This document shows, one piece after another, positions 1 through 4,443 of a DNA stretch of 64,000 bases. The stretch's first letter is position 1. Each line of letters starts with the position of its first letter. The position numbers and the translations under genes were made by a program. The DNA lies in sequence record SRR20825019_1298; one strand, given 5' to 3'. Under the pieces are notes generated by a model. The model saw only the letters and a program-made list of their open reading frames with translations. It made no database searches and was not told where the DNA came from.

Positions 1-1710
1 GCCCGTAGCCACCTCATAGATAAAGTCATCATACGAGGTGTAAAAGCCGTTCAGTACAAAGCTAAATGGACCTGTCGCATAGTTGAAGGTGGCCTCTAAC
101 CCCAAGGCCGTTTCCAGGCCCAGAGTTGCATCGCCAAGCTCGTAGGCGCCCGTGGCAAGGTGGGGACCATTTGAAAACAGCTCTTCAGTTGAAGGCGCAC
201 GCTCAGTCCTGAACAGTGACAGCCCGACAAAAGCAGCGTCAGAGATATCATATCCAGCGCCCGCCGACAGGCTGATGCCATCAAAGGATCGCCCATCCTG
301 CTCTGATGTTACATCCTCGATAGTATATTTGGTGTGTTCATACCGTGCACCCGCCTCAAACTGCCACGCGCCCGCTGAGAAGTCTTTCACGCTATACAGG
401 CCGTATTGTGTACTCACTGTCGGAGGAACAAACGCTTCTTCGCCAATCGCAGAAAAATCACGACGTTTGATTTGAATGCCTGTTGCCCCGTTCCAGCGTT
501 CACCACCTTTCTCAATCAAATCCAAACGGCCTTCCCAACCTTCGTTGGAAAACACGGTACCAATTTCATCGCCTTCAAGCTCTGTGTGTTTATAATCGGC
601 ATATCCAAATCGAATTTTCGCCTTCTTGAACCAGCCGAAGTCACCATTGAACTCTCCATGCAGGTCATAGCGGATCTGGTCAAGGTCGATGGTCACGGCC
701 TCGTCGTCATGCTCGTCCTCGTGATCGTCGTGGTCTTCATCTTCGTCATGTTCTTCATCATGATGGTGTTCATGGCCACCGGGCACGCCGTAGGTGCTAT
801 CCATCTTGCGAACATTGAAACCAAAAAAACCATTGTCGAAAATGAAGCTCAATCCCGCAGAGCCGCCCTTGCTCTCTGTTGCAGAATTTTCGGCAATACC
901 GAAGACTTCCTCATCCTCGTGTTCTTCATGATCGTCATGGTCATCGTGTTCTTCATCTTCCTCGTGCTCATCGTGCTCTTCTTCCTCTAAAGCCCGAAAA
1001 GCCTCGGATTCTGCGAACCCAGGTATTTTGTAATCGTCGGTTTTGCGGTACATCGCATCACCGTGGAAAACGATATTTGCATCTCCAACACTGCCAATAT
1101 TCGCTGTAATGGCGCCCGTCACCTCATTGCCGTGGTTTACCGTGCTGTGCCCATAACGCACACCGCCATCTACACCGCCTTCCGGTACTGCAGTAGCGAT
1201 CCGGCCGTCAAACACGTTTACCACCCCGCCAGCGGCAGAGCTGCCATACATCAGCATGGCTGTGCCGCGAAGTATTTCGATCCGTTCCGCAAGCGCAGGT
1301 TCAACCGCTACAGCGTGGTCCGGGCTAGTTGACGAGGCATCTATTGATCCAATGCCTGCATCAAGCACCCGAATTCGGTCTCCACCCAGCCCCCTGATAA
1401 TTGGACGGCTGGCGCCGGGACCAAAAAAAGTTGACGACATACCGGGTTGGCGACGTAAAGTTTCGCCAATCGAACCGTCGAGCTGGCGAAGGATTTCCTC
1501 TTTGCGCATGACCGTCGCACCCAGGATCGTTTCTCCGAGCTTTCGCCCCTCAAACGCACCTGAAACTACGATCTCTTCAAGCTGTTCATCAAGTGGTGGC
1601 GCCAAAGCCAGCGTCCCTGTTGTCGGGACAGTGGCGAATGTCACCGCAACTGTTGCAAGCAGGCGTTTCTTGTTGTTGCGATATATTGATTTGATTATTT
1701 TACTGGACAT
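1..1710 (-). CDS. TonB-dependent receptor, ZnuD-like (zinc/metal uptake); 3' end runs off the window
   Basis: Manual translation from ATG at 1710 is open to base 1. Signal peptide, TonB box-like LEEIVVSG, plug motifs GPGASRPIIRG and RIEILRG..LMYGSSA.GGVVN, two His/Asp/Glu-rich inserts, later ERAPSTEELFSNGPHLATG typical of ZnuD-like receptors. SD-like CAGGA upstream. Confidence 0.92.
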   Translation of the reverse strand, partial: MSSKIIKSIYRNNKKRLLATVAVTFATVPTTGTLALAPPLDEQLEEIVVSGAFEGRKLGETILGATVMRKEEILRQLDGSIGETLRRQPGMSSTFFGPGASRPIIRGLGGDRIRVLDAGIGSIDASSTSPDHAVAVEPALAERIEILRGTAMLMYGSSAAGGVVNVFDGRIATAVPEGGVDGGVRYGHSTVNHGNEVTGAITANIGSVGDANIVFHGDAMYRKTDDYKIPGFAESEAFRALEEEEHDEHEEDEEHDDHDDHEEHEDEEVFGIAENSATESKGGSAGLSFIFDNGFFGFNVRKMDSTYGVPGGHEHHHDEEHDEDEDHDDHEDEHDDEAVTIDLDQIRYDLHGEFNGDFGWFKKAKIRFGYADYKHTELEGDEIGTVFSNEGWEGRLDLIEKGGERWNGATGIQIKRRDFSAIGEEAFVPPTVSTQYGLYSVKDFSAGAWQFEAGARYEHTKYTIEDVTSEQDGRSFDGISLSAGAGYDISDAAFVGLSLFRTERAPSTEELFSNGPHLATGAYELGDATLGLETALGLEATFNYATGPFSFVLNGFYTSYDDFIYEVATG

Positions 1711-1738
1711 GGTTGTTTCCTGTAACCCTGATTTACGG

Positions 1739-1770
1739 TGTTGACAGTGAGTCCTCTCACTGGGCCAACA
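1739..1770 (-). other. Intergenic stem-loop between RAPP leader and receptor
   Basis: Minus strand UGUUGG-CC-CAGUGAG-AGGA-CUCACUG-UCAACA: 13 bp with a 2-nt bulge and no U-tract. Confidence 0.7.
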
Positions 1771-1788
1771 AAACTGAATTTTCGGTAT

Positions 1789-2124
1789 TTAAAGGGGGGT
1801 TACAAAGGATGGCGGCGCGCGGATCGCACCAATGCTGTCAAGAAATATGCGGCTTAGGCTACGAAGCGCTATTACCCATGTCACCTGCTCATTTTCTGGC
1901 AGGATCAGGTTTGTGCTTTGGGGCTTAAGCGTTGGGGTTTGATCAGAAAATTTGCACAATGCACAAACACGGTCATAAGGCGCGTCGACCTCATGATCTG
2001 AAACGTGTGCGCTCGCTGCAGCTGTTACCACAAAATATGCAATAACCGCGAATAGCCGAATGCCGATTTGAAAGAATGAGCCCTGTCTCACTACCTGTCT
2101 CTTAACTCTGATTATAACGGCCAT
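1789..2124 (-). CDS. DUF2946-like leader / putative RAPP ribosome-arrest peptide (alternative GTG start at 2091)
   Basis: N-terminal hydrophobic segment, HxxxH, CALC (CxxC), RAPP near the C-terminus, directly upstream of a TonB-dependent receptor. Confidence 0.8.
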   Translation of the reverse strand: MAVIIRVKRQVVRQGSFFQIGIRLFAVIAYFVVTAAASAHVSDHEVDAPYDRVCALCKFSDQTPTLKPQSTNLILPENEQVTWVIALRSLSRIFLDSIGAIRAPPSFVTPL

Positions 2125-2206
2125 AAGTCAATTCAGGACTTACAGCAGCTCCGGCGCAGCAAATAGCCGCGCCAATCCCCAACTTAAATATTGTGGGGTA
2201 AAGTAA

Positions 2207-2530
2207 TCAGAGAGAGGGCGGGCCACGCGCGCTCGCGCACGCCTTGAATGATGGGCAAGGAACGGAAGCCGTATCGGCCACATAGAAAATATGCCAATCC
2301 GGTGCCGCGAGTTGAGCAACAGGTTTCGCTGCATCAACGTCCGGTGTGTGCTTGCAAGCCGTTGCAATGATGCAAGGGTGACCATCGTGGGTATGTTCGC
2401 TATCAGCAAAGGCCGCCGCATGCGCGCTTGCAATGAGCTGTGCCGCAACAAAAAGCATAGCCAGCCATGGGGCAACCCTCGTCAGACCCAAACGGCCAAT
2501 ACTGTTTTCTATGTTGCGCGGCGATTTCAT
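2207..2530 (-). CDS. DUF2946-like leader / putative RGPP ribosome-arrest peptide
   Basis: Signal or TM segment, EHTHDGHPCIIATAC His/Cys cluster, C-terminal ARGPPSL-stop. Confidence 0.8.
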   Translation of the reverse strand: MKSPRNIENSIGRLGLTRVAPWLAMLFVAAQLIASAHAAAFADSEHTHDGHPCIIATACKHTPDVDAAKPVAQLAAPDWHIFYVADTASVPCPSFKACASARGPPSL

Positions 2531-2571
2531 CGTCCGTACGGATCTTCCTAAAAGGATACAATATCTTGGGG

Positions 2572-2600
2572 AATTTACGCTATAATATTACGCGTTTCAA
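2572..2600 (-). promoter_or_regulatory. sigma70 promoter with Zur-like operator in the spacer
   Basis: Minus strand TTGAAA-N17-TAAATT. The spacer contains GTAATATTATAGC (2579-2591), 2 mismatches from the Zur core GTTATAnTATAAC. Confidence 0.7.
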
Positions 2601-2628
2601 GCCTTAGTGAAATGCCCTAGAATCTGGC

Positions 2629-4443
<1,815 letters not shown>

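Follow-up and report, generated by a model that had tools for sequence, protein, structure and literature searches.

Two successive candidate arrest-peptide leaders before a ZnuD-like receptor gene with a Zur-type operator in Kordiimonas

The closest receptor-linked relative of the system described here is CruR (Bp2923), a leader encoded before the TonB-dependent transporter BfrG/CrtA in Bordetella pertussis (PMC9426467; PMC12914433). The CruR family has a conserved 45-residue spacing, within one or two, and a RAPP motif three residues from the end (PMC9426467). A ribosome stalled on CruR keeps the TonB receptor on, and copper releases the stall (PMC9426467). Of the RAPP-like sequences, RAPP and RGPP are the most prone to arrest, and upstream open reading frames (uORFs) carrying them are enriched before TonB receptors (PMC12992588). 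Here, we describe a locus of the marine bacterium Kordiimonas, a genus assigned from the names on database matches, in which two leaders with this kind of anatomy directly follow one another. It lies in a 64,000-nucleotide (nt) stretch of sequence record SRR20825019_1298 (the window, whose positions serve as coordinates throughout), within positions 1–2600. On the minus strand, a promoter with a palindromic operator is followed by leader 1, leader 2, and the gene for a ZnuD-like TonB-dependent receptor. To our knowledge, the periplasmic-metal arrest leaders described so far (CruR in 2022, CutF in 2023–25, and those of a RAPP/RGPP survey in 2025) are all single switches. An initial annotation had listed the elements of this locus, and all of them are present on the minus strand where it placed them; its positions for both arrest motifs and for the ligand motifs, and its spacings of 42 and 44 residues, are likewise correct.

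Leader 1 (2207–2530, minus strand) comprises 107 amino acids. It has an export-signal-like N-terminus with a hydrophobic segment, then HTHDGHPCIIATAC, the motif HTHDGHPC at 2372–2395, a ruler of 48 residues, and the ending RGPP-S-L-stop, in which two residues separate the arrest motif from the stop. Its predicted stall site, the RGPP codons at 2216–2227 (minus strand), is 42 residues from the second Cys of the motif region and 48 from the invariant first Cys. Leader 2 (1789–2124, minus strand) is DUF2946-like and contains HVSDH, CALC at 1954–1965, and the ending RAPP-SFVTPL-stop. Here, the RAPP codons (1810–1821, minus strand), again the predicted stall site, come 44 residues after CALC and six residues before the stop. 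Leader 2 is 111 amino acids long from an ATG at 2124, or 100 from a GTG at 2091 whose position is conserved in relatives. Both leaders show, by inspection, a basic N-terminus, ∼17 hydrophobic residues, and an Ala-x-Ala end, which together form a predicted export signal. Thus, the hydrophobic segments that had been read as transmembrane are present, but they resemble segments of the signal-peptide type. The anatomy of both open reading frames (ORFs), as read from their sequences, is that of exported arrest leaders of the CruR/CutF type.

This anatomy is conserved where it would matter for arrest. The R, P, and P of the arrest motif are invariant in 12/12 type-1 leaders (orthologs of leader 1) and in 13/13 type-2 leaders (orthologs of leader 2), as the initial annotation had required of a functional motif. 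The type-1 alignment of 12 also holds F27, A30, Q31, H37, H46, H48, G50, P52, C53, I54, D66, R102, P104, and P105 invariant. In the 13 type-2 leaders, H29, C43, R91, P93, and P94 are invariant and C46 is kept in 12. When all 25 are merged, H37, C53, R102, P104, and P105 remain invariant, and Q31 is present in at least 90%. The second Cys of HTHDGHPCxxxxxC, which the initial annotation had listed, is not conserved, being Val in 6 of the 12 type-1 orthologs. Leader 1 carries HxHxGHPC with one invariant Cys and neither CXXC nor CXXXC, and leader 2 has the CXXC of CruR/CutF leaders in the form CALC; the claim that the two leaders have different ligand sets therefore holds. Arrest-motif variants also exist before the orthologous receptor in leaders that are otherwise intact, namely, RDPP in a sister genus and HGPP in a type-2 leader of one Kordiimonas species (loci L078/L079 of G484 and G511, and L086 of G443).

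The spacing between the metal-ligand Cys and the arrest motif behaves as a ruler. It is 48 residues in 12/12 type-1 leaders and 44 in 12/13 type-2 leaders, so that both types show the fixed spacing published for CruR. Among type-1 database homologs that keep R[AG]PP, it is 48 in 38 of 39 and 49 in one (a 40th, ending RSPP, was left out of this count). The type-1 linker is free in sequence and fixed in length, with paired insertions and deletions that cancel out in the alignment. R[AG]PP itself stands 2–7 residues from the C-terminus in all 25 leaders. Such endings are rare: only 14 of the 29,880 stop-to-stop frames of at least 60 amino acids in the genome have R[AG]PP in their last 12 residues, and two of these are the adjacent leader pair. 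Three of the 14 are leader-like, the third lying before another TonB receptor.

These features bear on the reading that both small proteins are functional mature metal-binding proteins of the periplasm or membrane, such as receptor chaperones, in which R[AG]PP is incidental. Conserved His/Cys clusters and export signals in both would suit such proteins. A linker conserved in length and not in sequence indicates a ruler rather than a folded domain, however, and the position and rarity of the R[AG]PP endings, together with the regulatory role of the same design in CruR and CutF, make this reading highly improbable. We conclude that both leaders are very probably regulatory arrest leaders. The third leader-like ORF is a separate case outside the window (G000:C1:2592713–2593231, minus strand; L001:1480–1947). 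It has a hydrophobic N-terminus, a His/Cys cluster, a RAPPAALQTA end, and a DUF2946 score of 22.8 bits, and it directly precedes a siderophore-type TonB-dependent receptor in an ordinary single-leader arrangement.

The two leader types appear from their sequences to be homologous in architecture (profile–profile comparison: E 3e-5, probability 73%, 79 columns). The Pfam search that had been suggested as a check, with DUF2946 (PF11162), placed neither of them in that family. Leader 2 scored 15.9–16.3 bits (E about 0.02) against a gathering score of 23.7, and leader 1 had no match, nor did any of the type-1 orthologs (0/12). Among type-2 orthologs, 8/13 match DUF2946 at E ≤ 1 (best E 1.4e-4), and leader 2 is best described as a sub-threshold relative of this CruR/CutF family. 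A profile built from the 12 type-1 orthologs retrieved 243 of 1.84 billion cluster representatives at E ≤ 1e-3, with end-to-end matches of ∼100 amino acids. We counted endings and spacing in 140 of these 243 representatives. An RxPP ending is present in 137/140 (RAPP in 75, RGPP in 50, RSPP in 10, and RDPP in 2; none of these in 3), and the spacing from Cys to Arg has its mode at 48 and a range of 46–51. H48, C53, and P104 are invariant in this family, and Q31, H37, H46, G50, R102, and P105 are present in at least 90% of its members. Its layout, which leader 1 fits, is Q in the hydrophobic segment, AH, HxHxG, two residues, C, 46–51 residues, and a terminal RxPP. Only 7 of the 140 touch DUF2946 at E ≤ 0.01. 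By its sequence, then, leader 1 is a member of a broad sister family of the CruR/CutF-type leaders, marked by HxHxGxxC, for which Pfam has no model. Defining this family, with its 48-residue spacing and RxPP ending, is one outcome of the analysis. When related loci were searched with the type-1 alignment, 10 loci were returned, all from Kordiimonas or alphaproteobacterial metagenome-assembled genomes (MAGs), and no additional ones.

The receptor gene occupies 1–1710 on the minus strand within the piece 1–2600, which encodes the first 570 of its 735 amino acids, including two stretches rich in His, Asp, and Glu. Its best family is ZnuD (NF038289; 350.4 bits, E 2.3e-104, over the full model length), and its best solved structure is ZnuD 4rdr (E 6.9e-48), in agreement with the earlier description of a His-rich, ZnuD-like receptor. 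The score is far below the narrow 950-bit cut-off of this family, and the protein is therefore a ZnuD relative rather than an equivalog. Its gene lies 78 nt from leader 2, and the gene after it is convergent; the unit therefore consists of three cistrons. Spacer 1, between the leaders (2125–2206, minus strand), has internal hairpins, measures 82–115 nt depending on the start of leader 2, and shows no promoter-like or terminator-like site. As judged by gene order only, this is the arrangement of the metal-related operons of CruR/CutF leaders, with the leaders first and a TonB receptor downstream. An Rfam search of positions 1–4000 gave no match at E ≤ 1. Upstream of the operon, a gene for a hybrid histidine kinase with a receiver domain (2629–4443, minus strand) ends ∼30 nt before the −35 hexamer, and the same C-terminal kinase coding stretch, judged by eye from the DNA, lies upstream in the tandem-clade loci L004–L008.

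The promoter is sigma-70-like. Its −35 hexamer, TTGAAA, lies at 2595–2600 and its −10 hexamer, TAAATT, at 2572–2577 (both minus strand), with 17 nt between them; the latter comes from a consensus scan alone, the former from that scan and from cTTGA being kept at the same operator offset in orthologous loci. Within the spacer, a weight-matrix scan and ortholog comparison identify a Zur-like operator, a 13-nt AT-rich near-palindrome at 2579–2591 (unstranded). It is one mismatch from a loose degenerate form and two from the strict genus consensus GCTATA-N-TATAGC, and it is the second-best weight-matrix site in the whole genome. In 12 Kordiimonas orthologs, the same promoter reads cTTGA, 5–7 nt, and then GCTATA-N-TATAGC. 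The perfect palindrome has one copy per genome, at the receptor operon, in 5/5 other Kordiimonas genomes tested (a reversed control pattern gave 0 matches). At this position, the Kordiimonas species of the type-2-only clade carry the variant GTTAC-N3-ATTAC. Leaderless orthologs of the receptor, at five loci from other families of the order, have TTGACA, 5 nt, and GTTATA-N-TATAAC, and these Zur-type boxes lie ∼160–190 nt upstream of the receptor gene in the same place relative to the −35 element. Experimentally validated Zur boxes of Caulobacter have a 5-3-5 form and lie over or between the promoter hexamers (PMC4176598). The Kordiimonas form, GCTAT-N3-ATAGC, resembles them.

Of the two Fur-family proteins encoded in the genome, the one that matches Pfam less strongly is a Zur homolog (gene at genome positions 504873–505352); it scores 142 bits with NCBIfam Zur (cut-off 167) and matches Escherichia coli Zur 4mtd at E 3.5e-34. 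The 'Zur-like box' of the initial annotation is therefore well motivated, as it is the positional counterpart of canonical Zur boxes in a genome with a Zur homolog. It is not proven, because the motif, which departs from the genus consensus at two positions, is unconfirmed on any second target. We judge it likely that Zur acts at 2579–2591. The other top weight-matrix sites do not define a Zur regulon; they lie in or beside unrelated genes for an M23 peptidase, a penicillin-binding protein, and DUF proteins. The best site genome-wide (G000:C1:702890) lies inside a frame resembling, by eye and at its N-terminus, an AmpD-type amidase, and is probably a chance match. ZnuA (PF01297) had no match in any of the 31 Kordiimonas genomes searched, the window's own included, and CobW/COG0523 (PF02492) had none in the window's genome, although a Zur homolog is present there.

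A second line of evidence concerns the RNA. We folded 25 leader junctions, each from the Arg codon of the arrest motif to 12 nt inside the next cistron, as minimum-energy structures; 289 ordinary same-strand junctions of the same genome, with gaps of 60–140 nt, served as the control. In the window, the stall or tail region of leader 1 forms 16 pairs with the start region of leader 2, and that of leader 2 forms 11 with the start region of the receptor. The first helix joins the leader 1 tail, stop, and first spacer bases (2201–2215) to the leader 2 start region, a purine-rich stretch before GTG 2091 (2092–2111). The second joins the leader 2 tail codons (1795–1809) to the ribosome-binding region of the receptor, GGGTTACAGGA (1718–1728); all four segments are on the minus strand. 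The corresponding duplex energies are −8.7 kcal/mol (a fraction of 0.056 against other windows of the locus) and −14.9 kcal/mol (0.008). At least five such pairs form in 20/25 leader junctions versus 74/289 controls, and at least 10 in 15/25 versus 31/289, so the complementarity that had been noted after each arrest motif extends to most of the leader junctions. For duplexes of the tails alone, native partners average −11.45 kcal/mol and swapped partners −7.68, a mean not reached in any of 5000 permutations, in a set of kin that are not independent. By the same measure, 15/25 junctions do better than 95% of the other windows of their own locus. The helix is built by at least five different sequence solutions across clades. 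In the type-1-only clade, the tail pairs with the GTG start codon; in the tandem and type-2 clades, its partner is the Shine–Dalgarno stretch. Forcing the footprint of a stalled ribosome open raises the accessibility of the receptor start in 15/19 last-leader junctions. Leader 3′ ends are thus complementary to the downstream start region, as in unmasking of the SecM/CutF type.

Based on these observations, we propose the following mechanism. The operon would be gated by Zur and would place two nascent-chain sensors in series through stall-dependent unmasking, a scheme to which, taken as a whole, we give an even chance. A Zur-type operator in the promoter implies that transcription is probably off when cytoplasmic zinc is sufficient. 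The leaders would be paralogous sensors of the CruR/CutF kind, each with an export signal, a His/Cys cluster, a linker of fixed length and free sequence, and R[AG]PP 2–6 codons before the stop. With the ribosome at R[AG]PP, the ligand cluster would be just emerging on the periplasmic side, and what it meets there, most likely metal, would set how long the stall persists. The tail codons and stop would form a helix with the following cistron's ribosome-binding or start region. A stalled ribosome would cover the tail strand and leave the next start site free, whereas run-through and termination would allow the helix to re-form. CruR arrests with its two Pro codons in the P and A sites, as seen by toeprinting (PMC12992588), and a ribosome stalled in this way would therefore cover two to three tail codons of the helix. 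With stall-dependent unmasking, translation of the receptor would depend on leader 2 and that of leader 2 on leader 1, which would add a translational relay of two stages to the control of transcription. What we observe in support of this scheme are anatomy, conservation, ruler, complementarity, and distribution; that the leaders are exported, bind metal, and stall ribosomes, that the three cistrons are co-transcribed, that leader 2 depends on leader 1, and which sign the response has are inferred. That leader 2 controls the receptor through unmasking of the receptor start, we consider probable. That leader 1 gates leader 2 in a true series we regard as slightly less than an even proposition. 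As for the sign, by analogy with the action of CruR on an uptake receptor, metal may well release the stall and shut the receptor off, although we would put this no higher than evenly balanced.

The same junctions can be read in terms of Rho-dependent termination rather than start unmasking. A stalled ribosome would then block Rho loading, and its release would expose RNA and end transcription before the next gene. This is the published mechanism of CruR–BfrG (PMC9426467), and an untranslated leader 2 would present ∼300 nt of naked RNA, favoring polarity. The spacers, on the other hand, are short (82–115 and 78 nt versus 162 bp in Bordetella), 60-nt windows reveal no clear C-rich, G-poor stretch, and the enrichment of tail-to-start helices over ordinary junctions is as in CutF. 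On balance, we find Rho attenuation in place of unmasking unlikely. The two are not mutually exclusive, and Rho may act instead of unmasking or in addition to it.

The distribution of the leaders bears on whether they act in series. Orthologs of the receptor were found in 21/24 other Kordiimonas genomes sampled. Upstream frames ending in R[AG]PP, one or more per locus, are present in 19 of 22 Kordiimonas loci, a set to which the window's own locus belongs (L024 has no upstream DNA and could not be scored). Both leaders are present in 6 of these 19 (L004, the window's own, L005–L008, and L015), only type 1 in 6, and only type 2 in 7; K. lacus and K. lipolytica are type-1-only species. The type-2-only loci (L014, L016, L017, and L019–L022; 7/7) also share a conserved stretch ∼60–80 nt upstream of the −35 element in which AAGAACAA occurs twice as a direct repeat; no such repeat was seen in the tandem or type-1 loci compared alongside. 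At the level of genomes, calling a tandem where two same-strand hits with a model from both leader types lie ∼100 nt apart, we found direct tandems in 7/25 Kordiimonas genomes (G000, G008, G012, G013, G018, G020, and G442) and in 0/126 other genomes of the order sampled. The search for synteny that had been suggested is thus answered positively in Kordiimonas and negatively in the other genomes sampled. Tandem carriers include K. gwangyangensis DSM 19435, K. aestuarii JCM 17742, and K. laminariae 5E331.

Beyond the genus, no direct tandem was seen in the genomes sampled. Sister genera have one type-1-like leader (in one case ending RDPP) or one type-2-like leader. In a phylum-wide sample of 400 other genomes, type-1-like leaders occur in 12, each single and directly before a large ORF, and one genome has two leader–gene modules in succession. 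In an alphaproteobacterial sample, DUF2946 matches were found in 107/401 genomes (with the unpublished G279 among those counted) by a screen that is blind to type-1 leaders; the closest leader pairs in it were split by a structural gene (G186 and G237) or lay 1.2 kb apart (G096). In G186 and G237, both leaders are DUF2946 RAPP leaders, and each precedes its own structural gene: L045 (G237:C1:3795500–3802000) reads leader, PCuAC, leader, TonB receptor, and in L044 (G186:C6:110700–116700), the first leader is followed by a hemerythrin-like gene and the second by PCuAC/SCO genes. Screening with a DNA pattern of paired RxPP motifs ∼380 nt apart missed the window's own pair by one base of gap range and was discarded because real and control patterns matched equally often (1 and 1).

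This distribution allows another reading, in which the leaders are parallel or redundant. Only the receptor-proximal leader would gate, and the tandem would be an intermediate of leader turnover, with one paralog recently inserted or being lost; leader 1 in a tandem would then add little or act only through transcript polarity. This is the main rival of the serial scheme, although we think it rather unlikely. A single leader of either type precedes the orthologous receptor in 13/19 leader-bearing Kordiimonas loci, so that neither leader is indispensable, and the single leaders of the sister genera point the same way. In the receptor tree, whose midpoint root serves for drawing only and whose basal resolution is poor, the tandem state falls in two lineages; the main tandem clade has the type-1-only clade as its sister, species with type 2 alone group in a single clade, and the single-leader states require at least three changes. 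From this placement, a tandem ancestor with three losses is the simplest history. Degraded forms of leader 2 also exist, since the L015 lineage has lost both its second Cys and its helix and leader 2 of G442 likewise lacks the second Cys. Finally, the leader 1–leader 2 duplex is weak in three of the six tandem loci, where its tail-only value is at background (L006, L007, and L008; fractions 0.54, 0.45, and 0.16). Against redundancy, the tandem is maintained in seven genomes whose receptor identities reach down to 68%, and both leaders retain invariant ligands, ruler, and R[AG]PP. In addition, the minimum-energy structures of 5/6 tandem loci pair the tail of leader 1 with the start region of leader 2. 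Leader 2 start regions in tandem are less accessible than those of first-position leaders (mean unpaired 0.32, n = 6, versus 0.49–0.55, n = 19). In 6/6 tandem loci, leader 2 begins with GTG or TTG; where it comes first, ATG is the usual start, the start codons being our own choice.

Several of the observations given above, including the single-leader loci, the degraded leader 2 of L015, the background-level duplexes, and the DUF2946 results for both leaders, weigh against the serial scheme itself, and others must be added to them. The incomplete Kordiimonas MAGs L026 and L030 have no leader within 900 nt of the receptor. A quarter of ordinary junctions likewise pair end to end in such bounded folds, and the helix is missing in 5/25 leader junctions: leader 1–leader 2 of L006, leader 2–receptor of L015, and the junctions of L014, L017, and L020. 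At the window's own first junction, the duplex value is marginal (fraction 0.056), and 98/100 tail shuffles pair as well; because pyrimidine-rich tails match purine-rich start regions by composition, this control is uninformative there. When the stalled footprint is forced open in the six tandem loci, accessibility of the leader 2 start rises by at least 0.15 in three, is unchanged in two, and falls in one. RNAalifold, applied to three junction sets, gave 11 pairs with 2 compensatory changes in one, 21 pairs including an invariant tail helix of 5 pairs in another, and 0 pairs in the third (spacer 1), a consensus that is weak or absent, from alignments that are poor because tail lengths differ, and that we do not count as covariation support. 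At the transcriptional level, no other zinc gene lies beside the top sites of the genome-wide operator scan, and without a ZnuA or CobW gene, there is no anchor with which to cross-check a Zur regulon. Of the two steps, leader 1–leader 2 is the weaker, as judged by the tail-only duplexes, the opened footprint, and the single-leader species. We regard the serial logic as plausible. The Kordiimonas panel, in which tandem, type-1-only, and type-2-only species place their leaders before the same receptor and which includes cultured type strains, makes the question of serial versus redundant action directly testable.

A direct relay from leader to leader to gene would, if true, mean that arrest switches can be chained. 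Chained leaders could provide multiplicative, and hence steeper, or two-signal control of an importer above a cytoplasmic repressor. Zinc, perhaps together with copper, is the obvious candidate ligand, given the His3-Cys and CxxC sites, the Zur box, and the ZnuD-like receptor, although the metal cannot be read from sequence. In a more specific and distinctly speculative version, which we think has a poor chance of being correct, the two leaders would form a two-input gate. Leader 1, with its His3-Cys site, and leader 2, with its CxxC, would sense different periplasmic metals, such as zinc and copper, with the first stall licensing leader 2 and the second licensing the receptor. If this were true, the importer would be made only when the cell is zinc-starved, as read by Zur, and neither metal is present in the periplasm. 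It would also be the first cascade to have the synthesis of one nascent-chain sensor controlled by another, and the single-leader Kordiimonas species would serve as natural single-input controls.

It is useful to contrast this locus with the known systems. CruR resembles leader 1 in being a small exported ORF in first position before a TonB receptor, with a Cys metal motif and a spacing of ∼45 residues to a C-terminal RAPP. It differs in being a single copper-sensing leader that acts by Rho-dependent termination across a 162-bp spacer, with no Fur/Zur-type operator reported in the available text. In the Kordiimonas locus, two successive leaders follow a Zur-type operator and precede the gene for a ZnuD-like receptor, the spacers are short and have tail-to-start helices, and in leader 1, HxHxGHPC replaces CXXC and the Pfam match is absent. 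CutF, encoded in cutFOG of Rhodobacter capsulatus, is likewise an exported DUF2946 leader, and its stall at a C-terminal proline motif melts a stem–loop over the next ribosome-binding site; in contrast to the Kordiimonas pair, it is a single leader with CXXXC, copper induces its stall, and its target is a detoxifying oxidase rather than an uptake receptor (bioRxiv 10.1101/2025.02.05.636593). SecM–secA, ApdA/ApdP, and the Streptomyces uORFs share arrest of the RAPP/RGPP type near the C-terminus of an exported uORF; the arrest frees a downstream start site and gives way to force on the nascent chain (PMC12992588). These systems monitor the export machinery, and none is described, in the available text of that survey, as feeding a second arrest peptide (PMC12992588).

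The receptor and operator have their own counterparts. Neisseria ZnuD (Protein Data Bank entry 4rdr) is the best family and structure match of the Kordiimonas receptor and shares its His-rich stretches, and the Zur-repressed ZnuK/L/M of Caulobacter have a palindromic 5-3-5 operator within the promoter (PMC4176598). No leaders are described for ZnuD or for ZnuK/L/M in the available text (PMC4176598), and the Kordiimonas receptor, at 350 bits, is far from the 950-bit ZnuD cut-off. Neither a tandem relay of exported leaders nor any case from Kordiimonas was found in the literature searched, supplementary tables being outside its scope, and the available text of PMC9426467, the CutF preprint, and PMC12992588, supplements aside, does not mention such an arrangement. 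The initial annotation knew of no described tandem or zinc-linked case. For the tandem, this holds in the literature searched; the zinc-linked part needs qualification, since Table 1 of the Caulobacter Zur regulon lists DUF2946 genes (PMC4176598). Overall, single leaders before TonB receptors are known; new here are their direct tandem, its link to a Zur-type operator, and a leader family that Pfam does not model.

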